From Mobula hypostoma (lineage: Eukaryota): a stretch of 60,000 nt of DNA. The notes under the pieces were generated by a model. It was given only the letters and a program-made list of their open reading frames with translations, had not been told where the DNA came from and ran no database searches. The DNA lies in contig NC_086107.1 in NCBI RefSeq assembly GCF_963921235.1, positions 111,602,001-111,662,000 on the forward strand, given 5' to 3'. This document shows positions 2,303 through 55,000 of the stretch, one piece after another (position 1 is the stretch's first letter; each line of letters opens with the position of its first letter). The translations under genes were made by a program, and so were the position numbers.

Positions 2303-3261
2303 TATTTCTATAAGCTATCTTATGTACTTATAATTAGCGTGTGCTTTTTATTGCATTTTTTAATGCTGTATCGGATTTGGAGTAACAATCATTTCATTCT
2401 CCTTTCCACTTGTGCACTGTTAATGACAATAAACAATCTCAAATCTTGAAGGTTGAATCTTTTCCTCAAAGCCCTATCATTCCCCCTCAAGTTCACATGC
2501 AATTTCTGTTGAAAGAGTCTGCCTCCAGGCAATGTAAAGCAGATTTTAACCATTAGGTGCAGAGGAAAGTTTTTCTTCAAGTTGCATATGGTTTTTGTTA
2601 GATCTGAACATATATAGAAGATGGAGGTTGATTTCTTCCTTTAGAACATTATGTTTTCAATCTTGCTGAGTGAAAATGCACTCAAATAAAATGGCTACTG
2701 CCAAGGACCAAAACACTGGCAATAGATAAACCCTCAAAATCACCATAACCCCTGCTGGTTTACAGAACAACTAACAACTATGTACACATTTTTTTTTGTG
2801 TACAAATTATATACATGACTACAGTTCTTTAATCAATCTCTTCCATTTTCTTGCCTTTGTTTCTTGCCCAGTCTCCTCTACTCTGGTCCAGAGTTCGAAA
2901 TAACTTCAGAATCATCAGGTTTAATATCACCGGCATATGTTGTGAAATTTGTTGTCTTCGCTGCAGCAGCACAATGTGTTACATAATAAGTAAGATGATA
3001 TATATTAAATAGTTAAATTAAGTAAGTAAGGTCGGAGGCTTGAAGTTTTCGGACGACTCAGAGTCGGACTGTGGTCGGGCATGGCAGGGAGAGTTTTCTT
3101 TCTTCTCCCGTGAGGCACCTTCAATTACTCTTCAATCCTCTCGACACTCACTGTGGAGGTCGTATTGTACAGCAAATAAAAGCCTTTCAGTATTTTACCA
3201 AACCTCAGTCTTTTGGAGTAATTGAAGGTGCTTCAATTTTATTCGCTGTACATTTTAAAAC

Positions 3262-4345
3262 ATGGAACAGGCCCTGAGACCAGAAAAATTAGACCTCGAT
3301 CCGCAAACGCCTGACGCTGGAAATACTTTCGAACTCTGGCTGGCCTGCTTCAAAGCGTATCTAGAGGAGATTAAAGCGACCGACCCCGTAGCGAAGTGCA
3401 GAGTTCTACTCTCCAGGGTCAGTCCACGGGTTTATTCGCTGATCAGAGACCAGCCGAATTACGACAGCGCAATGAACGCACCCAAAAGACAATACCTGCG
3501 ACCAATAAACAGCGTCTATGCTCGGCACCGTTTAGCGACACAGCAACAACGGTCCGGGGAATCGAGTGCTGAGTTTGTCCGGGCCCTACAGACACTCGTG
3601 CGGGCCTGCAATTGCCAGGAGCTGACGGCGGTGCAGCATGCAGAACTGCTAGTGAGAGATACCTTCGTTACGGGGACCAGGTCAGTGTACGTGCGCCAGC
3701 GGCTGCTGGAAAAAGCCGATCTTACCCTAGATTCGGCGATGGAGCTGGCTGATACGTTGGAGGCCGCTCTGCATAACTCCGAGGCTCTCCAGGCACGCGA
3801 TCCCCCGATGGCTTCATGGGCGCCGCAGACCCTGCAACCCGCCGGCGAATCGACCTCGGCTGCAGCCAGTCGTGAGTCCGCGGACTGGAGAAGCACCCCC
3901 GGAAACGCTGCGCGGCCCGACAATCTACCTGTTCCAGCTGCGGAAAGGAGGGCCACTTCGCCAAGGTCTGTAAGTCAAAACCGCGAGCGGGATCGAGCAG
4001 TGCCGCGTGCGAGACGTGGGGGGTCGCCATCTTCCCTGCACACTGCCACCACGTGCGAGACATGGGGGCGGCCATCTTCCCTGCACACTGCCACCACGTG
4101 CGAGACATGGGGGCGGCCATCTTGGTCGGCGCCACCTCCCACCGCCTACGACCAACGGGTGCTCACAGGGCACCCCACCACGCCGGACCAAGACAGCGAC
4201 CCCACCCTGGCTTCCGTAACCCTCGACCAAAGCGCTCCCCACCAGCTCGCAAGGTCAATGATGGACATCCTGGTGGAGGGGCACAGGACAAGCTGCCTGT
4301 TTGACACAGGCAGCACGGAGAGTTTTATCCACCCAGCCACGGTAC
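3262..4345 (+). pseudogene. Gypsy gag plus aspartic protease N-terminus, with compensating frameshifts
   Basis: LRPEKLDLDP gag start; CSSCGKEGHFAKVC zinc knuckle in a shifted frame (~3930-3971); CLFDTGSTESFI protease motif. Confidence 0.8.
4006..4121 (+). repeat. 45-bp tandem repeat, ~2.5 copies, within gag
   Basis: CGTGCGAGAC units start at 4006, 4052 and 4097; encodes CETWGRPSSLHTATT. Confidence 0.85.
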
Positions 4346-4929
4346 AGCGAATAAAACTGAAGCACCTTCAATTACTCCAAAAGACAGGTTTGGTAAAATA
4401 CTGAAAGGCTTTTATTCGCTGTACAATACGACCTCCACAGTGAGTGTCTGCCCCCGGACTGAGGGGGAGGGGCAAGGCAAACACCTTTATACAGGACTCT
4501 GTGGGAGGAGCCACAGGGGCAGTCAGCAGAGGGGTGTGTCCAGACAGGTAACCCAGTTACAACATATATACATGGTTTACCACATTCCGTCTGCGTGAGA
4601 TGTGGGACCTTCGAGAGACTTTGAACTTTATTTACCGTGCCCATGGCCTGTTCTTCATCAAGTTATGGTATTGCTTGCACTGCTGTAACTATCTGTTATA
4701 ATTATATGGTTTTTGTCAGTTTTTCAGTCTTGGTCTGTCCTGTGTTTCTGTGATATCACACTGGAGGAAATATTGTATCATTTCCTAATGCATGCATTAC
4801 TGAATGACAATAAAAGAGGACTGCGTGTCCTCATAATCTAAAAAAAAATTTAAAAATGAAAGTAGTGCAAAAATAAGAATGAAAAAGTAGTGACGTAGTG
4901 TCCATGGGTTCAACACCCAAAAGACCAGA

Positions 4930-5475: not shown

Positions 5476-8400
5476 ATCCTGGACAGTGAGAATAGAGAAC
5501 TTGGTAGGAAGTTGAAAAGCAGGACCTCAAGGGTGGTTACCTCAGGATTGCTACCTGTGCTAGGTGCCAGTGAGGGTAGGAATAGGATGCTCTGGAGGAT
5601 GAACAAGTGCTGAGGAACTGGTGTAGGGGGCAGGATTTCAGATTTCAGGATCATTGGGACCTCTTCTGGGGCAGGTGGGACCTGTACAAGAGAGACGGGT
5701 TACACTTGAACCACAGGGGGACCAATATCCTTTCAGGGAGGTTTGTTAGTGCTATTGGGGAGGCTTTAAACTAGATTTGCAGGGGGATGGGAACCAGAGT
5801 GCCAGAGCTGACAGTGTGGCTGGGGTGAAAATAAATGATGTTGAAAGTTCAAGCAAATCCGCTAATAGAAAGGTTGTGAGTGGTGGTAAAAATCTTCTGA
5901 GGTGTATATACTTCAATGCTAGGAGTATTGCAGGAAAGGCGGATGAGTTGAGGGCGTGGATTGACACGTGGAATTATGATGTTGTAGCAATTAGTGAAAC
6001 TTGGCTACAGGAGGGGCAGGACTGGCAGCTTAATATTCCAGGGTTCCGATGTTTCAGATGTGATCGAGGCAGAAGAATGAAAGGTGGGGGAGTAGCATTG
6101 CTTGTTAGGGAAAATATTACAGCAGTGCTCAGGCAGGACAGATTAAAGGGCTTGTCTACTGAGTCCTTATGGGTGGAGCTGAGAAACAGGAAAGGTATGG
6201 CCACATTAGTGGGATTGTATTACAGACCACCCAATAGTCAACGAGACTTGGAAGAGCAAATCTGCAGAGAGATAGCAGGCAACTGCAGGAAACATAAAGT
6301 TGTGGTGGTAGGGGATTTTAATTTTCCATACATTGATTGGGACTCCCATACTGTTAGGGGTCTAGATGGTTTAGAGTTTGTAAAATGTGTTCAGGAAAGT
6401 TTTCTAAATCAATATATAGAGGGACCAACTAGAGGGGATGCAATATTGGATCTCCTGTTAGGAAACGAGTTAGGGCAAGTGACAGAAGTCTGTGTGGGGG
6501 AGCACTTTGGTTCCAGTGATCATAACACCATTAGTTTCAATTTGATCATGGACAAGGATAGATCTGGTCCCAGGGTTGAGGTTCTGAACTGGAAGAAGGC
6601 CAAATTTGAAGAAATGAGGAAGGATCTAAAAAGCGTGGATTGGGACAGGTCGTTCTCTGGCAAAGATGTGATTGGTAGGTGGGAAGCCTTCAAAGGGGAA
6701 ATTTTGAGAGTGCAGAGTTTGTATGTTCCTGTCAGGATTAAAGGCAAATTGAATAGGAATAAGGAACCTTGGTTCTCAAGGGATATTGCAACTCTGATAA
6801 AGAAGAAGAGGGAGTTGTATGAAATGTGTAGGAAACAGGGGGTAAATCAGGTGCTTGAGGAGTATAAGAAGTGCAAGAAAATACTTAAGAAAGAAATCAG
6901 GAGGGCTAAAAGAAGACATGAGGTTGCCTTGGCAGTCAAAGTGAAGGATAATCCAAAGAGCTTTTACGAATATATTAAGAGCAAAAGGATTGTAAGGGAT
7001 AAAATTGGTCCTCTTGAAGATCAGAGTGGTCGGCTTTGTGCGGAACCAAAGGAAATGGGGGAGATCTTAAATAGGTTTTTTGCGTCTGTATTTACTAAGG
7101 AGGCTGGCATGAAATCTATGGAATTGAGGGAATCAAGTAGTGAGACCATGGAAACTGTACAGATTGAAAAGGAGGAGGTGCTTGCTGTCTTGAGGAAGAT
7201 TAAAGTGGATAAATCCCTGGGACCTGACAGAGTGTTCCCTCGGACCTTGAAGGAGACTAGTATTGAAATTGCGGGGGCCCTGGCAGAAATATTTAAAATG
7301 TCGCTGTCTACGGGTGAAGGGTCGGAGGATTGGAGAGTGGCTCATGTTGTTCCGTTGTTTAAAAAAGGATCGAAAAGTAATCCGGGAAATTATAGGCCGG
7401 TGAGTTTAACGTCAGTAGTAGGTAAGTTATTGGAGGGAGTACTAAGAGACAGGATCTACAAGCATTTGGATAGACAGGGGCTTATTAGGGAGAGTCACCA
7501 TGGCTTTGTGCGTGGTAGGTCATGTTTGACCAATCTGTTGGAGTTTTTCGAGGAGGTTACCAGGAAAATGGATGAAGGGAAGGCAGTGGATATTGTCTAC
7601 ATGGACTTCAGTAAGGCCTTTGACAAGGTCCCGCATGGGAGGTTAGTTAGGAAAATTCAGTCGCTAGGTATACATGGAGAGGTGGTAAATTGGATTAGAC
7701 ATTAGCTCGATGGAAGAAGCCAGAGAGTGGTGGTAGAGAATTGCTTCTCTGAGTGGAGGCCTGTGACTAGTGGTGTGCCACAGGGATCAGTGCTGGGTCC
7801 ATTGTTATTTGTCATCTATATCAATGATCTGGATGCAAGTTTGCTGATGATACAAAGACTGGAGGTGTAGTAGACAGTGAGGAAGGTTTTCAGAGCCTGC
7901 AGAGGGACTTGGACCAGCTGGAAAAATGGGCTGAAAAATGGCAGATGGAGTTTAATACTGACAAGTGTGAGGTATTGCACGTTGAAAGGACAAACCAACG
8001 TAGAACATACAGGGTTAATGGTAAGGCACTGAGGAGTGCAATGGAACAGAGGAATCTGGGAATACAGATACAAAATTCCCTAAAAGTGTCGTCACAGATA
8101 GATAGGGTCGTAAAGAGAGCTTTTGGTACATTGGCCTTTATTAATCGAAGTATTGAGTATAAGAGCTGGAATGTTATGATGAGGTTGTATAAGGCATTGG
8201 TGAGGCCGAATCTGGAGTATTGTGTTCAGTTTTGGTCACCAAATTACAGGAAGGATACAAATAAGGTTGAAAGAGTGCAGAGAAGGTTTACAAGGATGTT
8301 GCCGGGACTTGAGAAACTCAGTTACAGAGAAAGGTTGAATAGGTTAGGACTTTATTCCCTGGATCATAGAAGAATGAGGTGAGATTTGATAGAGGTATAT

Positions 8401-10690: not shown

Positions 10691-11915
10691 CTGTTGACTC
10701 CATCTCTGGAGACAGACTGTCCACTGACATCTTCTACAAGCCCACTGACTCTCATAACTACCTCGACTATACCCCTTCCCACCCCGCCACATGCAAAAAT
10801 GCCATTCCCTATTCCCAGCTCCTCCATCTCCGCCGCACCTGCTCCGAGGATGAGGTTTTCCATTCCAGGACATCTCAAATGTCCTCTTTCTTTAAGGATC
10901 GTGGTTTCCCTTCTACTGTCATCAATGATGCCCTCACCAGCATCTCCTCCACTTCCCGCACTTCAGCTCTCGCCCCATCCTCCCGCCACCACAACAGGGA
11001 CAGAGTTCCCCTTTTCCTCACCTACCACCCCACCAGCCTCCAGATCCTGCACATTATCCTCTGCAACTTCTGCCACCTTCAACAGGACCCCACCACTAAG
11101 CACATCTTTCCCTCTCCACCCCTCTCCGCCTTCCGCAGGGATTGGTCCCTCCGCGACTCCCTGATCCACACGTCCCTCCCCACTGATCTCCCACCCGGCA
11201 CTTATCCCTGTAAGCGTAAGTGCTACACCTGTCCCTACACCTCCTCTCTTGCCACCATTCAGGGCCCTAAACAGTCCTTCCAGATGAGACAACACTTCAC
11301 TTGTGAGTCTGTTGGGGTCATCTATTGCATCCGGTGCTCCCGGTGTGGCCTCCTCTACATCGGTGAAACCCGACGCAGATTGGGGGACCGCTTCGTCGAG
11401 CACCTCCACTCCGTCCACCACAACAGACAGATCTCCCGGTAGCCACCCACTTCAACTCTGCTTCCCATTCCCGTTCAGATATGTCCATACATGGCCTCCT
11501 CTACTGCCATGATGAGGCTGAACTCAGGTTGGAGGAGCAACACCTCATATATTGTCTAGGTAGTCTCCAGCCCCTTGGTATGAACATAGAATTCTCCAAC
11601 TTTCGGTAATTCCCTCCCCCTCCCTTCCTCTATCTCTATTTCACTCTACCCCCTCCCCCAGTTTCCTCATGGTTCCGCCTCCTTCTTCTACCACCCATTG
11701 TTTCCAGGGCTATGACGTTAATGCTTCCTCTCCCCCACCCCTTTGATTTTCCAAATTACTGGTCTTTCAACTGACGCTACAAGCATTCTTCAAATCCTTC
11801 CCTATCTTTCATTCTTCAGTCCTGACGAAGGGTTCCGGCCCGAAACATCAACTCATCATTTCTGACTGATGCTGCCCGACCTGCTGAGTTCATCCAGCGT
11901 ACTGAAGTGTTGCTG
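10690..11915 (+). mobile_element. Penelope-like element: RT C-terminus, GIY-YIG endonuclease and terminal repeat
   Basis: TDIFYKPTDSHNYLDYTPSHP; GVIYCIRCSRCGLLYIGETRRRLGDRFVEH; premature stop at 11440. Confidence 0.9.
11817..11853 (+). ncRNA. Minimal type I hammerhead ribozyme motif (partly decayed)
   Basis: CAGTC-CTGACGA-a-GGG ttccgg CCC-GAAAC-ATC-AACT, in the Penelope terminal repeat. Confidence 0.65.
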
Positions 11916-14607: not shown

Positions 14608-14765
14608 AACAACAGGAATTCTGCAGATGCTGGAAATTCAAGCAACATACATCAAAGTTGCTGGTGAACGCAGCAGGCCAAGCAGCATCTATAGGAAGAG
14701 GCGCCTCTTCCTATAGATGCTGCTTGGCCTGCTGCGTTCACCAGCAACTTTGATGTATGTTGCTT
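14608..14765. repeat. Penelope-terminus insertion containing a perfect 126-bp palindrome
   Basis: Arms 14640-14702 and 14703-14765; direct repeat TAATATACACATGTA at 14593-14607 and 14765-14779. Confidence 0.9.
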
Positions 14766-15450: not shown

Positions 15451-15454
15451 TAAC

Positions 15455-16310
15455 CACCCCATCAGCCTCTGCATCCAATGCGATATCCTTTGCAACTTGG
15501 GCCATCTCCGAAGGGGTTGAACCACTAAACATATGTTTACCTCCCCCCCACCACCCCTCCGATTTCCCCAGCGGTCTCTCTTTCTGGGATTCCCTTTTCC
15601 ATTCGTCCCTCCCCACTAGTCTCCCTCCCGGCACTTATCCCTGCAAGTGGCCTAAGTGCTACACCTGTCCATTCACCTCCTCCCTCACCTCCATTCAGGG
15701 CCCAAATAGTTCTTCCAGGTGAGGCAACACCCCACCTGTGAATCTGCTGGGGTCGTGTATTGTGTCCGCTGCTCCCCATGCAGCCTCCTCTACACTGATG
15801 AGACCTGTCGTAAATGGGGGGGGGGCTGCTCTGAGCACCTCAGCTCCATCTGCCGCAAGCCGAACTTCCCAATGGCCAAACGTTTTAATTCCCGTTCCAG
15901 TTCCAACTTATTGATTTCTTCTTCCGGTAAAAAATGTTTCCCTCCCCCAGCTTCATCTTCTGTTCCCCACTCTGGTCTCTTACCTCGTCTCACCTGTCTA
16001 TCACCTCCCCCTGGGTCCCCTCCTCCTTCCCTTTCTCCTATGGTCCACTCTCCTCCCCTATCAGATTCCTTCTTCCCAGCCTTTGACCTTCCCCACCCAC
16101 CTGGCTTCACCTATCACCTTCCAGCTAGCCTCCTTATCCTCCCCACCAGCTTCTTATTCTGACATCTTTCCCCTTCCTTCTCAGTCCTGCTGAAGGGTCT
16201 CAGCCCAAAACATTAACGGTTTATTCCCCTCCATAGATGCTGCCTGACCTGCTGAGTCCCTCCGGCATTTTGTGGATGTTGCTCTGGATTTGCAGACTTT
16301 CTCGTGTTTA
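15455..16310 (+). mobile_element. Decayed Penelope-like element
   Basis: TCESAGVVYCVRCSPCSLLYTDET; terminal repeat with a degenerate hammerhead near 16182-16220. Confidence 0.75.
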
Positions 16311-18400: not shown

Positions 18401-19029
18401 CAAGGTTTGAAGTTTTTTGCGGTTTTTGGTAGGGTGGGTATGAAATGAATTTTAACTTTTGGTAGACTGCTGTGGTCAAATGTGAATGAATCAGAATTTC
18501 CCTCAGTCTAATGGCAGACAACTGGAGAATGTCATGCTCCTCTTCACTGCCCTCTATGGTACAGAAATCAAATTAAAATTTAGCTTCCCAGAGCATAGAA
18601 CAGTGGGATACAGGGTCAGACCTTTTGGCCACAATGCCAGGTAGGTCTTCATGCCAATTTTAAACTAAACTTCATGGTTATGAAACACAATCACATGAGC
18701 TTCTCTGTATTGTATTGTAATGACTGAAATTGTGCTCAATATTTCAAGTAAAAACTACTAATCATCCCCTTCCTTCTTATTCTGGCTTCTTCCCAAATCT
18801 GTTCCAGTCCCAATGGAAAGGATCTTGCCTTGAAACGTCAGCTGTTTATTCCACTCCACTGATGCTGCCTGACCTGCTGAGTTCCTCCAATACTTTGCCT
18901 GTGTGTTGCTTTCCCTCCCTGCTTTTCAATTATATATCCCAGTGCAAATACAGAGGTTTATTTTGATAATACTCCAACAGAACTGGACTCACAACTGAAA
19001 TGAACTTGATGCCAGTATAAAGAATGACT

Positions 19030-20130
19030 CCTCCGCTCCATCTGCAAAAGCGGAACTTCCCAGTGGCCAAACACTTCAGTTCCCATTCCCATTCCCATTT
19101 CGATGTGTCAGTCCATGGTCTCCTCTTGTGCCAAGGTGAAGCCGTCCTCGGGGTGGATGAGCGACACCTCATGTTCCGCCCCCCACTCCCCTCTGTGGCC
19201 TCTTACTTCTTCTCACCTGCCTATCACCTTGCCAGTCCTCTCCTCATTCCCTTTCTCCACTCTCCTCTCCAGCCCTTTACCTTTACTACTTCCGTGCTTC
19301 AGCTATCATCCACTTCCCCTCACCCCACCTTTCCATTCTGTCATCTCCCCTCCTTCCAGCGAACGGTATGCTGGCATTCATAGCGAGAGGACTCGAGTAC
19401 AGGAGCAGGGAGGTACTACTGCGGTTGTACAAGGCCTTGGTGAGACCACACCTGGAGTATTGTGTGCAGTTTTGGTCCCCTAATCTGAGGAAAGGCATCC
19501 TTGCCATAGAGGGAGTACAAAGAAGGTTCACCAGATTGATTCCTGGGATGGGCGGGACTTTCATATGATGGAAGACTGGATCGACTAGGCTTATACTCAC
19601 CGGAATTTAGAAGATTGAGGGGGGATCTTATTGAAACGTATAAAATCCTAAAGGGATTGGACAGGCTAGATGCAGGAAGATTGTTCCCGATGTTGGGGAA
19701 GTCCAGAACGAGGGGCCACAGTTTGAGGATAAAGGGGAAGCCTTTTAGGACCGAGATTAGGAAAAACTTCTTCACACAGAGAGTGGTGGATCTGTGGAAT
19801 TCTCTGCCACAGGAAACAGTTGGGGCCAGTTCATTGGCTATATTTAAGAGGGAGTTAGATAAGGCCCTTGTGGCTAAAGGGATCAGGGGGTATGGAGGGA
19901 AGGCTGGTACAGGGTTCTGAGTTGGATGATCAGCCATGATCATACTGAATGGTGGTGCAGGCTCAAAGGGCCGAATGGCCTACTCCTGCACCTATTTTCT
20001 ATGTTTCTGTTTCTATGTTTCCTTTCCAGGACTGAAGAAGGATCTCAGCCGGAAACGTCAACTGTTCATTCCTCTCCATAGATGCTGCTGGTCCTGCTGT
20101 GTTCCTCCAGCATTTCATGGGTGTTGCTAA
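19030..20130 (+). mobile_element. Penelope-like 3' fragment split by a CR1 insertion
   Basis: PVAKHFSSHSHS similarity; terminal repeat resumes at ~20020 with CTGAAGA...GAAACGTC. Confidence 0.65.
19358..20020 (+). mobile_element. CR1 LINE, 5'-truncated
   Basis: Near-identical to 1550-2302. Confidence 0.9.
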
Positions 20131-22759: not shown

Positions 22760-24110
22760 CAGCATGAAGTTTTTTGTTATAATAGCCCTTCAGTGCTTTC
22801 AGAAGGGAGCTTTTGGAAAAGCTGTTTGCAGAGTGCATAGGGTCGGAAATAATTTTTCTGCCTGCCCCTTTGTCCTGGACACACCCGGGTCCTGCGATGA
22901 TGGTAGGCTGCAGCCATTGACCTCTTCTGCTGACCTGACAGTTCACTGTAAGTTTTGTGTATGGTGAGAGGATGCTGCACCGAACCAGAATGTGACGGCT
23001 GATGTGAGGATGCTCGCTATGATGTCAGTGGAGAATTGCACCAGTATGTGCTGGGGAAGGTGGAATTTTACCAACCGCCACAAGAAGGGAAACACAGTGA
23101 CTTTCATTAGGACATAAGTGTGGCTATTGTTAGGATGGGAAATAGCTTCTTCCCCCAGGCTGGGAGATTCCCTGCCACCACCCTGATTTCATTCTGTATA
23201 CAGCACCAGTAGTGTTTACTTTTTAACAGACACTGACAGAATCAACAAACTCATTCGTAAGGCCAGTGATGTTGTGGGGATGGAACTGGACTCTCTCACG
23301 GTGGTGTCTGAAAAGAGGATGCTGTCCAAGTTGCATGCCATCTTGGACAATGTCTCCCATCCACTACATAATGGACTGGTTGGGCACAGGAGTACATTCA
23401 GCCAGAGACTCATTCCACCGAGATGCAACACAGAGCGTCATAGGAAGTCATTCCTGCCTGTGGCCATCAAACTTTACAACTCCTCCCTTGGAGGGTCAGA
23501 CACCCTGAGCCAATAGGCTGGTCCTAGACTTATTTCATAATTTACTGGCATCATTTACATATTACTATTTAACTATTTATGGTTCTATTACTATTTATTA
23601 TTTATGGTGCAACTGTAACGAAAACCAATTTCCCCCAGGATCAGTAAAGTATGACTATGATTACGACTACGTCATAAATGCACCTTATTATTTTGTAAAC
23701 TTACTGGGGGTAATATTACTTTATGTGTTGTGTATGTGAGTTATAGTGTCACTTGGTCTGGAGGAACATTGTTTCGTTTAGCTGTATACACGTGTACGGC
23801 TGAATAACAATAAACTTCAACTTGAATTTGAAGTATGTCCTCTGCCGAGCCCTTTTCTCATGGAAGGAGATACGGTTCTCCCACATGAGGTCCTGTGAAA
23901 TCATGCCACCCGTGAACCTGAATGTAAAAACAGTGCTAACTGTAGAGTTCTTGATGATGAGTGGATGGAGAGGAGACACCATTTCTCCTGGAGTCAATCT
24001 GCATCCCTACGGATTTGAGGGTGTTCTGCTCCAAGTTGTTGTGATTGCACCAGGACTTCCAGCTTGTCCACTTCCTGGTGGCTCTCGGATTTGTTGCCTC
24101 ATTGAGATGG
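22760..24110 (-). mobile_element. Old Rex1/Babar-type RT remnant interrupted by younger insertions
   Basis: Minus-strand SWCNHNNLEQNTLK...ISQDLMWEN (23870-24070) and FHLPQHILVQF...ILTSAVTFWFG (22950-23085). Confidence 0.6.
23228..23672 (+). mobile_element. Young Rex1/Babar-type 3' fragment
   Basis: Same family as 718-1083. Confidence 0.8.
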
Positions 24111-24924
24111 TGAGAAAGGTTTGCTTAATCTCTTACTTCATGATCCAATGCACCAAATCCAGGCAGGGGTTTCAGTGCCCGACTACGGCCATGCTTTCAA
24201 GTTGCGGATGATGCAAAGTTATGACGGAATGTAGGTATAAATAAACGATAGTATGTCCTGACCTTTTACAAATCAATCTGCATCTCTTATTAGCTCAGGA
24301 GTCTGCTGGTTCGATCTAAGGAAACTATACTTAGATTAAAACATAGGCACAGTTTTTACACCCTGTGGGTGACTTGGTTCCTCACTGATTTCGCCAGTAT
24401 GGGAGACTGAAACATCGGGACGGCAGGTGGTGTGCGTTGCTGTCGGACGAAGATGCCTGTAGACATTCTCTCTCTCTCCCCCCCCCCACCCTTCTCCCTC
24501 TCTCTCTCCTTCTCCCTCTCTCCTTTATTTGTCACATGCAATCAAAACAAGCAGTGAATTCTGTCATTTTGCGTCAGTAGCCAACACAGGCCGAGGATTG
24601 TGCTGTGTGCAATCCACAAGTGTTGCCAAGCTTCTGTCGCTGACATAGCATGCCCGCAACTCACTACCCCTCACCTGTCTGTCTTTGGAAACCAGAGAAA
24701 ACCCGCAGAGTCATGAGGAGTACACGCAAACTCCTTACAGACAGCGGTGGAATTGAATCCCAATCTGTGATCGCTCGCTCTGGAAAGTGATCGTTCTGAC
24801 CACTATGCTACCATGCTGCTGCCCGCCTTCTTAGAATTAGATGTCAAAGAGATTACTTTTTCACAAAGTCTATTTTAAGGTTTATTTCTTTGAACAGAAA
24901 CACATATGTACATCCTTTACAATA

Positions 24925-25475
24925 CAATCATGAGAAAGTCTGCAGTTGTTGGAAATCCTGAGCAACGCAGACAAAATACAGGTCAGGCAGCAGCTATGGA
25001 AATGAATAGATGGTCATCATTTTGGGCCGACACCCTTCTTCAGGACTGACGAGGAAGGGGGAAGATCCCAAAATATAAAGATGGGGGGGACTCTAGGTAC
25101 CCTCCAACCTAATGGTATGAATACCGATTTCACCTTTTGGTGAACAAATTTCCTCCCTCCCCTTCCTCTATTCCCCACTCTGACGTTTTATTTCTTCTCA
25201 GCTGCCTATCTCTTCCACCTGGATCCCCTTCCTCCTTCCCTTCTCCTATGCTCTACTCTCCCCTCCTATCAGATTCCTTCTTCTCTATCCCTTTACCCTT
25301 CCCACCTACCTGGCTCCATCTATCTCCTTCCCATCTGCCTACCTTTTTATTCTGGTGTCTTGCCCCCCTTCCTTCTCAGTCCTGATGAAGGGTCTCGGCC
25401 TGAAACGTCGACTGTTTATTCTTTTCCATAGATGCTGCCTGACCTGCTAAGTTCCTCCAGCATTTTGTGTGTGTC
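24925..25475. mobile_element. Penelope-like fragment with inverted terminal repeats
   Basis: Minus-strand terminal repeat at 24925-25090 back-to-back with a plus-strand copy at 25091-25475. Confidence 0.75.
25377..25414 (+). ncRNA. Minimal type I hammerhead ribozyme motif with intact core
   Basis: Stem I CAGTC/GACTG; CTGATGA; short stem II; GAAAC-GTC; predicted cleavage after C25409. Confidence 0.75.
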
Positions 25476-25934
25476 GTTTTACAGTACAAGGCCCATTCCA
25501 TAGTTCACAAATCATTATAGGTTTAAGTAATGTTTACACCAATAGACTCGCCTGTACAGTTTTGGAGTAAGTATTCAAAAAAGAAGCATACTACATTGGC
25601 AAGTAAGTTTGCAACAGCACAATTACATCAAGAAAATAGGACATTAAATTGCTGTCATTCCCCAAATCCCTCTTGTGACAGTGACACCAAGCTCACTCCT
25701 TTTGTGCTGAACAAATAATTTTTTATTGAAATGCTCAAGATCAAAAGACCCATTCCTCAGAAAACTTCTCCATATTTAGACAAGTTGTCAGGGTGACATG
25801 ATGAAATACGTCAGACCATGGTAATTAGTGCACCATTAAAAACAAGTCAAATTATTATTTGATTCCCTTAGGAGAATTCTAAGGCTTGTAATTCAACAAA
25901 TGTTAATCAAAAGGTTTATGGGACAATGAATGCA

Positions 25935-26650
25935 TGGGAGGATGGGTAAGCTGGGAGAACATGCAGTAGTTCTCATCGAGGGGGCCTCTGTAGAAAGGAT
26001 GAGCAGCTTCAAGTTCCTGGTGTCAACATCTCTGGGGATCTATCCTGGGCCCAACATATTGATGCAATTACAAAGACAGCACGGGAGCAGCTATATTTCA
26101 TTAGGACTTAAGGAGATTTGGTACGCCACCAAAGATTTCAGCCAATTTTTTTCTTCCATCGAAGACTCTGACAAATTTCTCCAGATGTACTGCGGAGAGC
26201 ATTCTGACTGGCTGTGTCATCGTCTGGTATGAAGGCACCAATTCACAGCGGCGAATAAGGCAGCAGAATGTTGTAAACTCAACCAGCTTCATCATGGGCA
26301 CCAGCCTCCTTATCATCAAGGGCATCTTCAAAAGGTGATGTCTCAAGAAGGCGGCTTTTCTCATTAAGGACTCTCACCATCCAGTTCATGCCCCTTTTCT
26401 CATTAATACCATTAGAGAGGAGGCTTAGGGGCCTGGAGACATACACCTAACATGTTAGGAACAGCTTCTTCCCCTCAGCCATCAGATTTCTGAACGGTCC
26501 ATGAAATCTTGAACTCACTAGTTTGCTGTCTTTTTGTATCTATTTATCTTAGAATATATATATTCTTATTATTTGCTAATTGAAATTTGTAGTGATCTTC
26601 ACAACGAGTTTCACAACATATGATGGTGATAATAAACCTGATTTGATGTC
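25935..26650 (+). mobile_element. Decayed Rex1/Babar-type fragment
   Basis: VLIEGASVERMSSFKFL and downstream similarity to other copies. Confidence 0.65.
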
Positions 26651-27643
26651 CATGGCAAATGACAATTATCAGGATTATCTCCACATCCCAGTTTTTAGCT
26701 TTAAATCCTGTAGGTCACCAAACATTAAGTCCTCATTCAGGTAGTTAAACAAGAGGAGGTTTCTGCCATTACTTTCAGACTGCAAGTGTTAGAACCCCAC
26801 TATATTCCCGATGAAAATAAAACTATTCTTAACTTCCTTCTTAGCCTGAAATATACAATCACAGGTGCTGCCTTACCTGCTGACCTCCCCAGCTTCCAGG
26901 ACATCTGCAAGGAGCAATGCCACAAAAAAAAGGCAGCATCCATCGTTAAGGACCCCATCACCCATGACGTGCCCTCTTCTCATTGTAACCATCAGGAAGG
27001 AAGTACAGAAGCCTGAAGACACACACTCAACGATTCAGGAACAGCTTCTGCCCCTCCGCCGTCAGATTTCTGAATGGACAATCAAACTATTCCAAAATAT
27101 GCATTCCAAACTATTGGTCCTTTGGTTCTGATCCTGGATTTCAACCTGAAACATCGCTATGCATCCTTTGCCTCCACGGATGTTGCTTGATCCACTGAGA
27201 TTATCCAGCTCTTTAGTTTTCATTTCCAGTTCCAGCATCTGCAGTCTCTTTCACCTTTCTTCACCACAGCTGGGTCTCAATTCCGAAATTGGCTAGTCAC
27301 AAGGGTAGTACCTTAAACCTTGGAATCAAGCAAGATGGAGCACAAGTCTAGGTGTTGCCTCATACAGTTCTGGTATGGCGGTTCTGGTTTTAATGTTGCA
27401 GTCAGTAAGGAAAACAAATAATAAATCTTGTATTTCCATTGAACTTCAAAGGCAAACAGGTGCTTCCAAATGCAGCTGTTTCTCCAATCTTCTCATTTAC
27501 AGTATGTAGGCCCTTTCCAGGATATGAATGTGTCTGACTTATGGACACCCATGCATTGATAGAGATCTCATAAATATTTTATTTTCAAACAAGAACTAAA
27601 TTTGGAAATGAAAACCTGTTTGCGTATAACTTTCACTCAATTA

Positions 27644-31045: not shown

Positions 31046-31909
31046 TTACAGCAGCTTTATTGCTCCAAAGAATGTCCCGTCACCATTTAATGCAATCTGT
31101 GCCTGTATCCGCGGTATTACAAGTTCAAGTTCATCTCCTACTTCAAGCTGTGCGATGCCAGCAGTGAAACAGGAGTTGTTTGGACAGCAGGCAGACATGT
31201 TCTGAATGCACCGAAACAAAATCACCGAGTGCGGCTCGTTGCCAACAATATTGGCCTTGTATCTTTTTATAAAGTGCCCCATCGTAAACGTATTATCCTT
31301 GTACCACACTTGGCTGTACACCAGAAAGTAACCAGCTTCTATCACAGAGATCTTATTACCTTTCTTGTCGAGAGCCCTTCCTTTTTTCAAGCTCAGAATC
31401 CAGGGGACGGAGGTGGCTTCCATTTGGTTTTGATTCCCATCGGCTCTCCGTTCAACTCGACAGGATTGCTGTGGTCTTCCCGGGATGCATTTTTGGCAAT
31501 TGCTCACTCTTACGGTGCGCTTTGGGACATTGGAAGCAATCAGTTGTACACAGGCCTGCTGTGCCTGTTCAGGGAGTGACCTGTGTATTCTAAGCTTCAT
31601 CCCATCTCTTGATTTAGCCTCGTGGTACAGTTGCTCCTCAAAAACCTCATCAAGCTGGTTCACTGAAATGCTCCAGTTGGCCGCTTGGGCCTTATTTAAT
31701 TTTGTCAGGGCTTCCAGGTGGAGTTTGTACGTGTCCAGTTCCTCTCTCATCGAAGAGATTTCTCCTTTCAGTGCAAGGACGTGGTGTAAAGCGACCACTG
31801 CCACATAGGTCGACATCAGAGCTACTGAAATTAAGATGCAGGCAGAGTAGATCAAATGTCTGTGCTGAATATCGTAGCCAGTCTTTTCTTGTTCTGTGCT
31901 CATTTTCAT
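31046..31909 (-). CDS. tnfsf13b: BAFF (TNFSF13B)-like type II membrane TNF-superfamily ligand, intronless, 287 aa
   Basis: First ATG at 31909 (the track start is GTG); TM helix LIYSACILISVALMSTYVAVVAL; stalk VLALKGEISSMREEL; RIHR site; TNF domain CVQLIA...VPWILSLKKG...LFRCIQNM...NNSCFTAGIAQLEVGDELELVIPR...TFFGAIKLL, collinear with BAFF; orthologue versus paralogue unresolved. Confidence 0.92.
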   Translation of the reverse strand: MKMSTEQEKTGYDIQHRHLIYSACILISVALMSTYVAVVALHHVLALKGEISSMREELDTYKLHLEALTKLNKAQAANWSISVNQLDEVFEEQLYHEAKSRDGMKLRIHRSLPEQAQQACVQLIASNVPKRTVRVSNCQKCIPGRPQQSCRVERRADGNQNQMEATSVPWILSLKKGRALDKKGNKISVIEAGYFLVYSQVWYKDNTFTMGHFIKRYKANIVGNEPHSVILFRCIQNMSACCPNNSCFTAGIAQLEVGDELELVIPRIQAQIALNGDGTFFGAIKLL

Positions 31910-32254
31910 TACAAATTCCCCCTTGTTGCGGAACTGCTGCAACAACTCATCCAAAACACAAGTGCCGTTTCCTGTCAGCTGGTATTTGCAGAACACTTCA
32001 CTATATCTGCTTCTGTTTTGTAATCTGGCAGGTTTTACAGTCTGCGGATGAAAGCAACAATTCACATTCTAAAACTAAACATCTACAAACGAGGAGAGTT
32101 GAGCTGGTATCTTCTTTTGCATTCCTGATGTTATCAGATTAACTGTTCCTAAGATAGGAAATGTAACTATAATAGGCTTTTTCATCTGATCTCAGGAGAG
32201 CAATTGGGATTTGGAATTCAATGCCCAATAGATTCACTTCTTTCTTCACTTATG

Positions 32255-35453: not shown

Positions 35454-35849
35454 GTAGAGTCCTCCATTGATTCCACAACCTATAGAAACACAAACAAGAG
35501 AAAATCTGCAGATGCTGGAAATCCAGACCGAATTTCGGACTGAAATATCAACTGTACTCTTCTTCATAGATGTTGCCTGGCCTGCTGAGTTCCTCCAGCA
35601 TTTTGTGTGGGGTTTTGGCCCAAGCCGTCGACTGTACCCTTTTCCATAGATGCTGCCTGGAAATCCTTTTGTAGGAATTTCCATTCAAGGGCATTGGTGT
35701 TTCCATACCAGGCTGTGATGCAGTCAGTCAATATAGTCTCCACTACACATCTATAGAAGTCTGTCAAAGTTTTAGATGTCATACCAAATCTCCACGGCAG
35801 ACTCCTGTACAAAGGTGTTTTCTCTACCACTCGGAAAATTTCTTTCCTT

Positions 35850-39005: not shown

Positions 39006-39639
39006 ACAGCAAGTTTTAACAAAGGATCTGTTGCTCAACTGAGTGACCGTCAACAGTACCATGTGATATCCATCACTTTCATCAAATCTGCTTATGATTT
39101 ACCATTCTCTGCACCTCCTTTGCTGTTTCTGGTGTAAATCACTTGTTCATCAGTGATATTCCCTCTGAAACCAAAGGGTCAGTGTTGTGACAGGAAGGTG
39201 TATTGGTGACTGAGGTCAAAATGGAGGTTGCTTCATCATCTCAAAGTCTTGACCAATGAAACACAGGGTTTGAACTTGTCATCACCTAATCCAGAGGTGA
39301 ATGAATGAAGCCAGATCATGTGACATTGGTCCGGCTAATGACCAACATAAAAGGCAAACGAACTATGGGACGGGAGAGGGGTACTTAGCTGTAGTATAGT
39401 GTGCACGGCCCAGTGAATAACTGTAGCAGATTCAACATTGATCTGCAAGAGGCAATCAATAAATACCCGAAAGAGAAAGAATTGCAAAGAAAGCAGATCA
39501 CAGGGCAAAACTGGAATACTGCTTCAAAGAGTAAGCACAAGAACAGGACCACATTTCATCTTTCTGTTCTGTATGATTACATCTATGTTGAGTGAAATGG
39601 GTCAAGCGCATCACTGTTTTGAGAAGGTCAAAAAATTCT

Positions 39640-44051: not shown

Positions 44052-44533
44052 AACAAGGGACAGGGAGGTGTTGCCCCTTTTCCACAGCAAGAGGGAGACC
44101 AACAAAGCAAAAAATCTTGCAGGTTATGATGGTACAGTCTGCCGTGTCGCTTTTATTCTGGGTTCTCTGACTCGAAAATCCTCCCCCCCCCACCATCGAG
44201 AGAGAAAGAGAGAGAGTGATCAGCCAAGTACAGGGGCCTCCGACAGCCGATCTGCTGTTCGTGATGTTCTGGTTAGCGAATTGCGAGCATTCTATGCTGG
44301 AACCGGAAGCATGGTGATGCTTGTGCGCTGCCTCTAGCACAACCCCCACACTGCGTTATCACTGACACAAAGCGACGCATTTCACTGTTTGTTTTGACGT
44401 GTCGCCGTACATCTGACAATAAAGCGAATCTTTCCTTCTTTAAATTGGATGCAGCATGGTCAGCTTACCCGTTGGAGTTGAGAATTTCTTTACTGTAATT
44501 AACTGAATTGTAGTTTTTTGACTCTCTCCACAG

Positions 44534-44671
44534 TCTTCATAACTTGTGACCCGGGTGAATCACATTGCTGAGTTCATCTGGAAGCAGTCACACGAGGAAC
44601 GGGAGCACGCCGAGAAACTGATGAAATTCCAGAATCTGTGTGGAGGCTGGATCTTGCAGCAGGACATTAAA
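44534..44671 (+). pseudogene. Ferritin (H/M-type) exon 2 relic
   Basis: [29 protein letters not shown]; flanked by polypyrimidine-CAG and GT; in-frame TAA at codon 3. Confidence 0.85.
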
Positions 44672-44960
44672 GTTGGGCTCAACAATGTCCTGTTCCATCA
44701 AAGACTTTGACTAACTCTGTCTGCAGCAAATGATAATACTTGACAACTTTATTTTGGTTTATACAGTCTTAGACCGTAGGAGGAAACCAGAGCACTCAGA
44801 GGAAACCCACACATTCACGGGAAGGATGTGCAAACTTTTTACGGCGTTGGAACTGAACTCCAAACTCTGACGCTCTGAGCACTCACTGCTACACTGTTAG
44901 GGCACCCTATTTAGTTTATTTAATTTACTTTTTAAATATTTCTTATTGTAATTTAGAATA

Positions 44961-48785: not shown

Positions 48786-48879
48786 GCCGTATGTCGGGAG
48801 AACCTAAGATTAAATTTTTCTGTTTAAAAGTGGGTCACCAATTTTAGACAGAGGTAAAATTGTCGCTAAGTGCTAGAAT

Positions 48880-49620
48880 CCCTGTACACCTCCTCCCTCA
48901 CTTCCATTCGGGGCCCCAAACAGCCCTTCCAGGTGAGGCAACATTTCACCTGCAAATCTGCTAGGGTCATCTATTGTGTCGGTGCTCCTAATATGGCCTC
49001 CTCTACTTTGGTGAGATCTGTTGTAAATCTTTGTCAAGCAGCTCCACTCCATCTGCATAAAGTAGAACTTCCCGGCAGTCAAATGCTTTAATTCCTATTC
49101 CCATTCCGTTCCAACATGTCAGGCCATGGTCTCCTCTTGTATCAAAAAGAGGCCACCCTCAGGGTGGAGGAGCAACATCTTATATTCTGTCTGGGTAACC
49201 TCCAGCCTGATGGCATGAATACTGATTTCTCCTTCAACGTTCTGGTAAAAAAAAATTCCTCATCCACTATTTCTTACTCTGGCCTTTTCGACATGTCAGT
49301 CCATGGCCTCCTCTTGTAGCAAGAAGAGTCCACCCTCAGTTTCTCCAGCTACCCTCCTCTCTCTTTTTCTCCTACGGTCCACTCTCCTCTCCTATCAGAT
49401 TCCTTCATCGCCAGTCTTTGACCTTTCCCACCCACTTGACTTCACCTATCACCTTCCAGCTAGCCTCTTCCCCCTCCCTCCCACCATTTTATTCTGGCAT
49501 CTTCCACCCTTCTTTCTCAGTCCTGAAGAAGGGGCTTGGCTCAAAACGTCGACTGTTTATTCATTTCCATAGATGTCGCCTGACCTGCTGTGCTCCTCCG
49601 GAATTTTGTGCATTTTGCTT
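48880..49620 (+). mobile_element. Decayed Penelope-like element
   Basis: GPKQPFQVRQHFTCKSARVIYC; degenerate hammerhead at ~49518-49555. Confidence 0.7.
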
Positions 49621-50499: not shown

Positions 50500-51224
50500 C
50501 TGCAACAAGTACGGAGGAAGATGGTTGAAGAAAGTTCAAGTCTAATTATAAATACAAGAGATTCTGCAGATGCTGGAAATCTCACACACAATATGCTGGA
50601 GGAGCTCAGCAAATCAGGCAGCATCAATGGAGAGGAATAAACAGTTGATGTTTCAAGCCCAGATGAAGGGTCTCAGGCTGAAACATCACTCACCTCCACA
50701 GATGCTGCCTGACTTGCTGAGGTCTTCCAGCATTTTGCGCGTGTTGCTCAAGTCTAGTCAATTACTTTTGAGTATGCAAAATTGGTAATGGACGCCAGGA
50801 TATAATCTACAGTGCATCCAGAGTTTAACGCAGAAGATGACAAAAAATTTTTACAATAAAAATGTGTTAAAGCTTTTAGATACAGGGGTTGACTTGCTCA
50901 GCTCTGGCACCTCGTTCCAAGCAACAATCAGCAGTTTTAGAAGTTGTCACCAACTGTATACCACAACTGTGCTGTTAGCAGTTCATACTACATGTTCACC
51001 ACAAATCTCCGTCTCAATAAATCCCAGTTTCAAAGAGAATACACCCTGCTGGCTGTAGAACGAAATACAACTGCCACTCAGCCCAGAAATGAAAACAAAC
51101 TTTAAAGTCAAAAAACATACATCAAAGTTGCTGGTGAACGCAGCAGGCCAAGCAGCATCTATAGGAAGAGGTGCAGTCGACGTTTACTTTATTTGTCACA
51201 TGTGCATCGAAACATACGGTGAAA

Positions 51225-52040
51225 TGCAACACACACAAAATGCTGGAGGAACTCAGCAGGTCAGCCATGACTGGAAAAGAGTAAACAGTCCATGCTTTGG
51301 ACTGAGTTCTTTCTTCAGGACTGAGAGGGAAGTGGGGGGAGATGTCGGAATTAAAAGTTGGGGCAAGGGGAAAGAGGCTAGCTAGAGGGTGATAGGTGAA
51401 ACCAGGTGGATCAAGGGCTGAAAAAGAAATAATCTGATAGGAGAGTAGAGTGGACAATAGAAGAAAGGGAAGGAACAGACAGATGAGAAGAAGTGAAGGG
51501 TCAGAGTGGGGAATAGAGGAAGCGGGAGGTGGGTTTTATTTCACTGGAACAAAAATTTTTTTTTCTTCTTAGCCAAGAACGCCAGGCTCAGTGCCAGAGA
51601 CCCGGTCACCATGGGCGTCCCCTGTAGGTCATCCCCCTCAACAGCATCTAGCCCTAATTATGACTGTCTCACCAATGTAGAGGAGACCGCAATGGGAGCG
51701 CCAGATGCAGTGGACAACCCCAGCAGATTCGTAGGTAAATACCGCCTCACCTGGAAGGACTGAATGAAGGTGAGGGAGGAGCAGCTGCAGTACTTAAGCC
51801 ACCTGCAGGGGTAAGTGCCTGGTTGGATATTAGTGGGGAGGGTCAAATGGACAAGGGAAATGGAGGGGGATGAGGTACAGATATTTTTAGAGATAGGGTC
51901 AGCTTGGAGATGGCAGAAGATGAGGAGGATGATGTGTGGATGCGGATGCTGATGGGGTGGTAGGTAAGGACAAGACGGACTCTCTCACTATTTTGGTGGT
52001 GAGGAGTTCCTCCAGCGTTTTGTGTGTTTTGCTTTGGATT
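51225..52040 (-). mobile_element. Decayed Penelope-like element
   Basis: PGTYPC...SFQVR on minus; terminal repeat at 51225-51400. Confidence 0.65.
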
Positions 52041-52045
52041 ACTAG

Positions 52046-55000
52046 TGTTGTAATGTCAGCATTATTTAAAGTAAGTTAATACTAATTAGGATGATGGGGG
52101 GTTTTACTTCCGTTCTTTTTACTTCCGGTGTGCTTTGTATATAGTGAAAGCCTCTGTATATACATAATGGCTTTGAAATTCGAGATAAAGTTGTTTCTTG
52201 GGCATGAAGTTGTCAAGTGTGCCTTTTTCAAAGTAGAAGTTACTACATATTTTTGGCGACGAGGTGAACTGGTTTTGTGAACGCATCGGCACGTTTTTCA
52301 AACGGGAGCTTCGCGTTTCAGATGGCTACATTTGGAACTATCGGTGAATTTCTGGAAGGAAACGAGACTAGACGTTATTGAGCCCGTCCAGTTTTCAAGG
52401 TGGGCGACTCCCATTGTTCCAGTTCTGAAGGCAGACAAAATGGTGAGGATATGTGGGGATTATAAGCTTACGGTGAATCAGGTCTCTAAGCTGGAGGAGT
52501 ACCCATTGCCACAGGTGGATGACCTGTTTGCGACCATGACAGGGGGTAAGCTGTTCACAAAGCTGGACATGAGCCACGCCTACCAACAGCCGCTGCTCGA
52601 CGAGAATTCAAAGGAGTACGTCACAATTAATATGCACAAGGGATTATTCAAGTACAATCGCCTGGTGTTTGGAGTGGCGTCCAGCTCTGCCATTTTCCAA
52701 AGGACAATGGACACTTTGCTGCAAGGGATTCCGCAAGTAGCAGTGTACCTTGATGATATTTTGATCACGGGGACTATGGAGGTGGAGCATCTGGCTAATT
52801 TAGAACGGGTGCAGAAGAGGCTCTCAGACGCAGGGCTGCGGTTGAAACGTGGAAAATGTGTTCCTGGCATCGACTGTGACTTTCCTGGGACACAAGATCA
52901 CAACTGAGGGGCTTTTCCCAGTGGAGGACAAAGTGAGAGCTATAAAGGAGGCCCCAAGCCCTAAGACCGTCACGGAACTCAGAACATTTTTGGGCATGGT
53001 GAATTATTATGGCAAGTTTCTTCCTGACCTCTCAAGGGCTTTGACCCCACTGTATAAGCTGCTTCACAATGACACTAAGTGGCAGTGGGGTGAAGAGCAG
53101 GAGAAAGCTTTCAAGGAAGTGAAAGAACTCCTCCACTCAGCGAAGCGGCTTGTTCACTATGACCCAGACAAGGAGATCACCCTTGCATGCAATGCCTCGC
53201 CCTATGGAGTCGGGGCAGTTCTCTCACATGTAATGAAAGACTGTTCAGAGAAGCCTATTGGTTTTGCTTCATGTACCCTGACAGCTGCTGAGAAGGGATA
53301 TTCACAGCTAGACAAAGAAGGTCTGGCCATTGTTTTTGCGGTCAAACGCTTTCATCAGTACCTTTATGACGTGTATTCACAATTTATATGGACCATAAAC
53401 CACTGATGAGCCCGTTCAGCGAGACTAGATGCATCCCACTGCTGGCCTCAGCCAGGATACAGCGTTAGGCTCTTGCATTGTCAGCCTACCAGTACACCAT
53501 AGTGTACAGAGCGGGTGGGAATAATGCAAGTGCTGATGCACTGAGCCGACTACCATTACCTGAGACACCTGTTGCTACATATAGAACATAGAATATAGAA
53601 TAGTACAGCACAGTACAGGCCCTTCGGCCCACAATGTTGTGCTGACCCTCAAACCCTGCCTCCCATATAAGCCCCTACCTTAAATTCCTCCATATACCTG
53701 TCCAGTAGTCTCTTAAACTTCACTAGTGTATCTGCCTCCACCACTGACTCTGGCAGTGCATTCCACACACCAACCACTCTCTGAGTAAAAAACCTTCCTC
53801 TAATATCCCCCTTGAACTTCCCACCCCTTACCTTAAAGCCATGTCCGCTTGTATTGAGTAGTGGTGCCCTGGGGAAGAGGCGCTGGCTATCCACTCTATC
53901 TATTCTTCTTATTAAATTGTACACCTCTATCATGTCTCCTCTCATCCTCCTTCTCTCCAAAGAGTAAAGCCCTAGCTCCCTTAATCTCTGATCATAATGC
54001 ATACTCTCTAAACCAGGCAGCATCCTGGTAAATCTCCTCTGTACCCTTTCCAATGCTTCCACATCCTTCCTATAGTGAGGTGACCAGAACTGAACACAGT
54101 ACTCCAAGTGTGGCCTAACCAGAGGTTTATAGAGCAGCATCATTACATTGCAACTCTTAAACTCTATCCCTCGACTTATGAAAGCTAACACCCCATAAGC
54201 TTTCTTAACTACCCTATCCACCTGTGAGGCAACTTTCAGGGATCTGTGGACATGTACCCCCAGATCCCTCTGCTCCTCCACACTACCAAGTATCCTGCCA
54301 TTTACTTTGTACTCTGCCTTGAAGTTTGTCCTTCCAAAGTGTACCACCTCACACTTCTCCGGGTTGAACTCCATCTGCCACTTCTCAGCCCACTTCTGCA
54401 TCCTATCAATGTCTCTCTGCAATCTTTCACAATCCTCTACACTATCTACAACACCACCAACCTTTGTGTCGTCTGCAAACTTGCCAACCCACCCTTCTAC
54501 CCCCATATCCAGGTCATTAATAAAAATCACGAAAAGTAGAGGTCCCAGAACAGATCCTTGTGGGACACCACTAGTCACAATCCTCCAATCTGAATGTACG
54601 CCCTCCACCACCACCCTCTGCCTTCTGCAGGCAAGCCAATTCTGAATCCACCTGGCCAAACTTCCCTGGATCCCATGCCTTCTAACTTTCTGAATAAGCC
54701 TACCGTGTGGAACCTTGTCAAATGCCTTACTAAAATCCACATAGATCACATCCACTGCACTACCCTCATCTATATGCCTGGTCACCTCCTCAAAGAACTC
54801 TATCAGGCTTGTTAGACACCATCTGCCCTTCACAAAGCCATGCTGACTGTCCCTGATCAGACCATGATTCTCTAAATGCCCAGAGATCCTATCTCTAAGA
54901 ATCTTTTCCAACAGCTTTCCCACCACAGACGTAAGGCTCACTGGTCTATAATTACCCAGACTATCCCTACTACCTTTTTTGAACAAGGGGACAGCATTCG

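Follow-up and report, generated by a model that had tools for sequence, protein, structure and literature searches.

The window analysed here, a stretch of 60 kb from a ray genome, is transposon-rich vertebrate DNA, 43% of which is self-repeated, and contains fragments of LINEs and LTR elements. A short LTR-type element with a 109-nt inverted terminal match (96%), a gag/protease-like frame and a 45-nt tandem repeat lies at 3143-4448 (+), a long LINE remnant with endonuclease and RT domains and a 651-codon open frame at 5750-8382 (+), and a broken Gypsy-type pol (RT, integrase), split by a minus-strand LINE fragment at ~53650-55900, at 52248-57431. An intact intronless TNF-family (BAFF-like) frame, with a Pfam TNF match above cutoff, is found at 31046-32068 (-), 5.6 kb from position 25377. 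A ferritin-like exon (~44530-44672 (+); Pfam Ferritin E 8.9e-6) has an acceptor-like pyrimidine tract, a GT after it and an in-frame stop near its start, and is probably a piece of an unprocessed ferritin pseudogene. Further Pfam matches in non-repeat frames are weak or of repeat type only.

The feature under study is a minimal hammerhead motif at 25377-25414 (+), and the letters and layout previously claimed for it match the sequence. Helix I is composed of a 5' strand (25377-81) and a 3' strand (25410-14) that form 5/5 bp. The C3-A9 box CUGAUGA (25382-88) is followed by an unpaired A at 25389, then by helix II (25390-93/25398-401, 4/4 bp including two G-U pairs, with a 4-nt loop), by G12-A15.1 (GAAA, 25402-05), by C15.2 and G16.2, and finally by U16.1 (25408) and C17 (25409); the predicted cut falls after C25409. 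All the 12 core letters (C3 U4 G5 A6 N G8 A9 / G12 A13 A14 A15.1 / U16.1 H17) are present, the topology is of type I with a helix I of 4-5 bp plus helix II, and there is no loop III, positions 15.2-16.2 being palindromic as is characteristic of minimal hammerheads (min-HHRs). In this copy a G10.1-U11.1 wobble, ascribed to CpG decay, replaces the canonical G-C pair; the G10.1-C11.1 pair is present in the inferred family ancestor and absent from 25377 (copies are named here by motif position).

The full structural descriptor has one match in the 60 kb, which is 25377, and 0/300 dinucleotide shuffles give any. The loose pattern CTGATGA-N10-30-GAAAC is weak alone, because it is near chance in shuffles: it has 2 matches in the window, and 5/100 shuffles reach 2. 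One of these loose matches, at 39125-39153 (-), fails the full descriptor and was rejected. A second motif family was also sought with a relaxed descriptor allowing 1 core mismatch, which gave, besides 25377 and 49518, only two weak matches (C3 at 40104 (+) and 12770 (-)), presumed to be chance occurrences. The Rfam covariance-model scan of the window gave 8 matches at E up to 5, none of them to a hammerhead family, a miss that would be expected for a motif without helix III. The coordinates of the motif-bearing and related termini are collected in Table 1.

Table 1. Penelope-like remnants, termini and hammerhead motifs in the 60-kb window.
Position	Strand	Feature	Details
10699..11905	+	Longest of the Penelope-like remnants; retains thumb region, CX3CX2C linker and GIY-YIG	Frameshift at about 11430; no ORF similarity past ~11600
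11817-11854	+	Motif of the 10699 remnant	Core intact, palindrome lost, helix I 3/5
14620..14765	both	Young inverted pair, sister subfamily termini	Arms identical over ~60 nt; tail on minus arm only; starts downstream of motif
15453..16279	+	Penelope-like remnant, GIY-YIG part and 3' repeat	Motif 16182-16219 dead (A6C, G12A)
18768..18912	+	3' terminal fragment	Motif 18805-18844, CUGA box disrupted
20005..20124	+	3' terminal fragment	Motif 20027-20064: core intact, helix I 3/5, helix II 2/4
24940..25085	-	5'-truncated arm, inverted, extended at its 3' end by a tail-like stretch	81% identical to plus arm; left boundary approximate
25091..25475	+	5'-truncated Penelope-like 3' fragment	Last ORF codons, pyrimidine-rich 3' repeat, hammerhead, 3' end without tail at 25471-25475
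25405..25408	+	ACGT palindrome (A15.1-U16.1), loop-less helix III	Could pair only with a second copy
35485..35659	+	Inverted tail, then two head-to-tail truncated termini (35532, 35610)	Both motifs dead; left boundary approximate
48867..49613	+	Penelope-like remnant, GIY-YIG part and 3' repeat	Motif 49518-49555 dead (G12A)
50555..50744	both	Head-to-head pair	Tailed minus arm starts ~50663, inside helix II
50654-50691	+	Motif of the plus arm of the 50555..50744 pair	Broken: U4A, helix I broken
51229..52025	-	Penelope-like remnant, GIY-YIG part and 3' repeat	Motif 51323-51286 dead (G12A, A15.1G, G at 17)

The flagged motif is part of an insertion at 24940-25475 made of two arms in opposite orientation. 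The last ORF codons of the plus arm, at ~25093-25131 (LGTLQPNGMNTDF), are identical at 11/13 positions to a C-terminal stretch of the protein P0002, and 3' ends of the family lie at 25471-74 in DNA runs. The motif of the minus arm (25048-25011) is dead owing to G12A and U16.1A. No target-site duplication was found around 24940-25475, the only 7-mer being internal to the repeat. The 3' junction of the insertion is common to a second, close species (contigs over 25450-25800, with 6 substitutions and 4 gaps). The unique 3' flank (25447/25450-25800) is covered by single contigs in two presumed-RNA runs from two species, a coverage that implies neither transcription nor strand, and one presumed-RNA run contains 0.57 of the words of 24000-26500.

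The assignment of the motif to Penelope-like 3' termini, as proposed by the earlier note, is borne out by the coding remnants. Penelope-type ORF sequence lies upstream of the motif and on the same strand in 4 remnants (10699, 15453 and 48867 (+), 52025 (-)), which places the motif in the pseudo-LTR of a Penelope-like element. Compared with proteins, the longest remnant (10699) gave 49 matches out of 1390 candidates, to RT-GIY-YIG proteins; the best is a stingray protein model (79%), followed by sharks, and in one RT-GIY-YIG protein of 899 aa it is the C-terminal third (residues 600-842) that the remnant matches. Its Pfam GIY-YIG match is weak (E 0.002, under the curated cutoff), and the RT core itself is missing from all the Penelope remnants in the window. 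The CX3CX2C linker reads CKRKCYTC in the 10537 frame and fits the pattern CX2-5CxxC, which is described as typical of Neptune and Nematis and absent in Penelope and Poseidon (PMC8557442). We propose that the element is an EN+ Penelope-like element, probably Neptune-like, the clade being assigned by this linker motif and not by a tree. The zebra-shark Penelope protein model P0003 ends in the translated motif frame (LMKGLRPKRQ), which suggests motif retention across elasmobranch lineages. We also observed that public gene models absorb the element, the best match (P0001) being named as a kinase-domain isoform yet consisting of Penelope ORF sequence.

The anatomy of the copies is of the same kind. 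We found 5' truncation, an inverted 5' arm, an optional tail of 30-40 bp and partial tandems; inverted 5' arms, one-sided tails and partial tandems are given as Penelope hallmarks in PMC8557442, and inverted-arm anatomy has been explained by two internal reverse-transcription starts (PMC11167929). Inverted arms with a one-sided tail, or a lone inverted tail, also occur at 14.7, 35.5 and 50.6 kb. The inverted termini at 14620-14765 form a perfect hairpin, a possible source of dsRNA or small RNA; Rfam miRNA-precursor matches at 14659-14746, below the gathering score, correspond to these Penelope arms and were discarded. At 35485-35659, two head-to-tail termini 78 nt apart have a retrozyme-like arrangement in which neither motif is alive.

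All the 8 further copies listed by the earlier note were found, each at the place given or within 4 nt of it: 11817, 16182, 18805, 20027, 49518 and 50654/5 on the plus strand, 25048-25011 and 51323-51286 on the minus strand. An nhmmer profile built from 8 seeds gave 19 family matches in the window, many of them truncated within or after the motif. The proposed density of about one motif per 7 kb holds for full-length copies (9 in 60 kb, that is 1 per 6.7 kb) and fails for complete motifs (1 per 60 kb): 1/9 copies is structurally complete, and we should therefore speak of a remnant every 7 kb and of a complete motif every 60 kb. Among the 9 full-length copies, only 25377 passes the full descriptor, the other 8 being broken in core or helices; the 12-letter core is intact in only 3 (25377, 20027 and 11817) and ACGT is retained in only 4. 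G12A affects 4/8 of the full-length copies other than 25377, and the unpaired A between A9 and 10.1 is found in 9/9. Far more divergent terminal remnants at 27110-27215 (+) and 26823-26888 (+), of which the 27123 copy is 60% identical to the majority sequence, probably represent older subfamilies.

Matching against DNA runs agrees with the very high copy number that had been suggested, family contigs being of the order of 10^5. With 25250-25800 as query at 80% likeness, the matched contigs numbered 146,765 (of 25.0 million records) in one DNA run; for a second species, whose DNA run has 23.0 million records, they numbered 142,953. Summed depth in DNA runs is ~12 in the unique flank and reaches 4-5 million across the motif, a figure that is not a copy number. 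These data indicate a Penelope family of the order of 10^5 remnants. Among the variants listed within the motif are N7 (54%) and the CpG positions 11.1 (30% C), 15.2 (12%), 16.2 (14%) and 17 (11%), and the levels at 15.2, 16.2 and 17 are similar (8-15%) in two presumed-RNA runs; such shares in matched contigs favour look-alikes of the reference copy. A large class of contigs clipped at 25425 carries G12A in its consensus, and contigs end at the repeat in DNA and presumed-RNA runs alike. Metagenome and viral contigs contained no match to a 22-nt tail pattern.

Excess conservation of the core, a test set beforehand by the earlier note, was not detected, a result that speaks against constraint with low power. 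In 12 aligned copies, 8/102 non-CpG core cells differ from the majority, vs 52/485 in the non-ribozyme tail (p=0.47) and 24/190 in the non-CpG stems (core vs stems p=0.24); the point estimate is slightly lower for the core (7.8%) than for the tail (10.7%) and the stems (12.6%). At CpG sites 34/91 cells differ from the majority. The per-column test takes in 12/13 copies, the divergent 27123 copy being left out there and kept in the CpG tallies, and 6 short matches of the 19 stay outside the alignment. The C11.1/G12 CpG provides an internal control, given that its decay to TG leaves a wobble and its decay to CA kills G12, the general base of the reaction (PMC6155905): 13 copies show 6 TG vs 5 CA (p=1.0). 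C11.1 is kept in 6/12 copies, and both C11.1 and G12 in only 1/13. The family majority sequence has every core letter. The search for helix covariation in 9 copies gave 1 double change, with 302-316/500 shuffles reaching the paired fraction, and has little power in one decayed family; the published covariation of min-HHRs is across families and genomes (PMC4209133). RNAalifold, given 9 copies, failed to return a hammerhead fold. The picture is one of dispersed copies decaying neutrally, at the low power that 12-13 copies afford.

The flagged copy is the best kept of the family in the alignment, where it agrees with the majority at 95/98 positions of motif and terminus, compared with 80-88% identity for the other 11 copies. 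Its private changes amount to 3/95 in motif and terminus vs 26/219 upstream (nominal p=0.018, 4 copies compared), and the three further long copies show this contrast less clearly (6/95 vs 9/219, 8/95 vs 28/219 and 7/95 vs 22/219). This better-kept terminus is a weak hint only, because 25377 was selected for being the best of 9 copies and the sequence upstream is of low complexity.

We conclude that 25377 is very probably a minimal hammerhead of type I that belongs to a Neptune-like Penelope element, in whose 3' pseudo-LTR it lies; the element has been hugely amplified, and this copy is now a passenger that decays neutrally, its lone monomer being likely inactive. Following PMC4209133 and the review PMC6765202, from which these steps are derived, two motifs on one transcript of an active, partially tandem element would swap their helix I strands and pair ACGU with ACGU into a double hammerhead, which, probably aided by the protein of the element itself, would cut after C17. 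Judging from copy anatomy, reverse transcription would start ~60-100 nt 3' of the motif; with ends only ~60-100 nt past it, very short 5'-truncated insertions may therefore still carry the motif. The dispersed copies, among them 25377 as the least damaged, would be passengers of this process.

Consistent with a lone monomer that is likely inactive, the minimum free energy fold of 25377 (-10.8 kcal/mol) buries the core, and the open form has p=0.019. Two monomers (-21.6) and a mispaired duplex (-29.9) are both favoured over the double hammerhead (-14.7) by nearest-neighbour energies, which ignore tertiary contacts of the core and help from protein. For published min-HHRs, PMC4209133 reports an activity that is not detectable for the monomer and low for the dimer. 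According to PMC11167929, the anole motif cleaves only with protein, with rescue by C3G/G8C, insertion in vitro proceeds without it, and the cut coincides with neither the start nor the end of any RNA-seq read. On the same strand, the closest copies whose core is intact are 20027 at 5.3 kb, with broken helices, and 11817 at 13.5 kb, which has lost the palindrome; since these partners are distant and structurally broken, the lone 25377 copy is expected to be inactive. No insertion starting at the cut site was seen among the 24 listed of 1146 loose ends, where clipping tracks mismatches to 25377, and position 25410 in the matched contigs is neither a place of many ends nor a depth step.

The suggestion that the motif acts on host intronic transcripts finds no support in the window, where 8/9 copies are broken, 25377 has no intact same-strand partner and no host exon pair was found to flank it. 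The Pfam scan, which covered 178/178 non-repeat frames of at least 48 codons, gave no host exon pair around 25377; the window could lie inside one very long intron. That many intact copies in transcribed regions nevertheless burden the genome by cutting pre-mRNAs or lncRNAs of the host, whether as dimers formed in cis by neighbouring copies, as dimers in trans or with the aid of protein, seems to us very unlikely. The family is huge, as the contig counts of both DNA runs attest, most of the matched depth, though biased to look-alikes, keeps the reference letter at 15.2, 16.2 and 17, and the retrozymes of Xenopus, a related class, are depleted in introns, which would fit a cost of cleavage (bioRxiv 10.64898/2026.07.22.740005). 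This reading is however at odds with the single complete copy out of 9, which leaves no cis partner in the window, with an adjacent arm that is dead and on the opposite strand, with the lack of excess core conservation, with the lack of flanking exons in the scanned frames and with a dimer fold disfavoured by energy. Domestication at this locus, by which selection would have kept 25377 intact so that it serves a local transcript as a regulatory fold or cleavage site, is highly improbable in its turn. It could draw on the terminus being better preserved than the upstream part, on a contrast that is weaker in the other 3 long copies, on the 3' junction common to the second species and on the domesticated intronic hammerheads known in amniotes (PMC6155905). 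The best-of-9 choice, however, inflates the p-value about ninefold, the upstream part is variable between subfamilies as well as of low complexity, and gene conversion or chance among ~10^5 copies explains the preservation equally well; moreover, the preserved stretch takes in the non-ribozyme tail, the G10.1-C11.1 pair is lost, and the full helix III and tertiary contacts of known domesticated motifs are lacking in 25377.

We give least credence, and very little of it, to a motif that does not cleave even in the active element and is a vestige kept for a fold involved in protein binding or in the start of reverse transcription. The short helix II (4 bp), the disfavoured double-hammerhead fold, the dispensability of cleavage for anole insertion in vitro (PMC11167929) and the success of Naiad elements, which thrive without the motif (PMC8557442), would all suit such a vestige; the family majority sequence with all its core letters, the end of P0003 in the motif frame and the protein-dependent, C3G/G8C-rescued cleavage of the anole motif (PMC11167929) argue against it. 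A neutrally decaying passenger remains our preferred reading of 25377. It is unlikely that selection has retained 25377, or a minority of intact solo copies like it across the genome, and that such copies cleave host transcripts in vivo as trans dimers or with the element protein; were it so, the Penelope load would amount to an RNA-cleavage system dispersed over the genome and to a living reservoir of domesticated hammerheads.

As to significance, the present work extends a class described in 2014 to a ray genome, where it is very abundant, and otherwise adds little beyond annotation. The size of the family and the built-in C11.1/G12 CpG control would allow a clean genome-wide test of in vivo cleavage by Penelope minimal hammerheads, which would reveal itself by a shortage of intact copies on intronic sense strands or by insertions that begin at the cut site. 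Should intact solo copies cut host RNA, this would be a new genome-wide cost, or a regulatory use, of retroelement fossils.

The ray motif belongs to a known class, the minimal hammerheads of Penelope pseudo-LTRs, and is not a retrozyme array. Like the min-HHRs of metazoan Penelope-like elements (Cervera and De la Pena 2014, PMC4209133), it is of type I, without loop III and with palindromic 15.2-16.2, has an unpaired base between A9 and 10.1 and a helix I of 4-5 bp, and is located in the pseudo-LTR; in both cases the copies are mostly dispersed, single and truncated, with opposite-strand pairs 100-700 bp apart. Helix II has 4 bp in the ray family, unlike the 7-8 bp of the S. mansoni min-HHR, and the flagged copy has G-U where G10.1-C11.1 is highly conserved among the min-HHRs of that paper. 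The order of 10^5 copies in the ray, relics included, seems well above the ~4,000 intact motifs of the coelacanth and the ~9,000 of Xenopus, counts that are not like for like. The same source reports min-HHRs in Xena, Poseidon and Neptune elements of fishes, and names no cartilaginous fish in the text and supplements covered; its supplement file 1 may list some. Our literature search listed no publication devoted to Penelope minimal hammerheads in sharks or rays, although the supplements of bioRxiv 10.64898/2026.07.22.740005 may list cartilaginous fish.

Among better-studied relatives, Poseidon PAc of Anolis (Frangieh et al. 2024, PMC11167929) has, like the ray element, a pseudo-LTR hammerhead shortly upstream of two 3' ends, tailed and untailed. 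The ray element is of another clade than Poseidon PAc, as its cysteine linker of Neptune type indicates; it has no full-length active copy in the window, and is known from sequence alone. The non-LTR retrozymes of animals (bioRxiv 10.64898/2026.07.22.740005; PMC7229834) are likewise non-autonomous, Penelope-derived and endowed with type I hammerheads, and the former source found them in the one chondrichthyan sampled. Retrozymes, however, are tandem arrays with at least 2 complete motifs, and TRF detected no such array in the window; the ray copies are dispersed termini, and their sole tandem pair (35532/35610) is dead. Finally, the domesticated intronic hammerheads of amniotes (RECK and others, PMC6155905) have in common with the ray motif a type I core and a retroelement origin; these are single-locus, canonical ribozymes conserved across species, whereas 25377 is one copy of a minimal motif present in high copy number.
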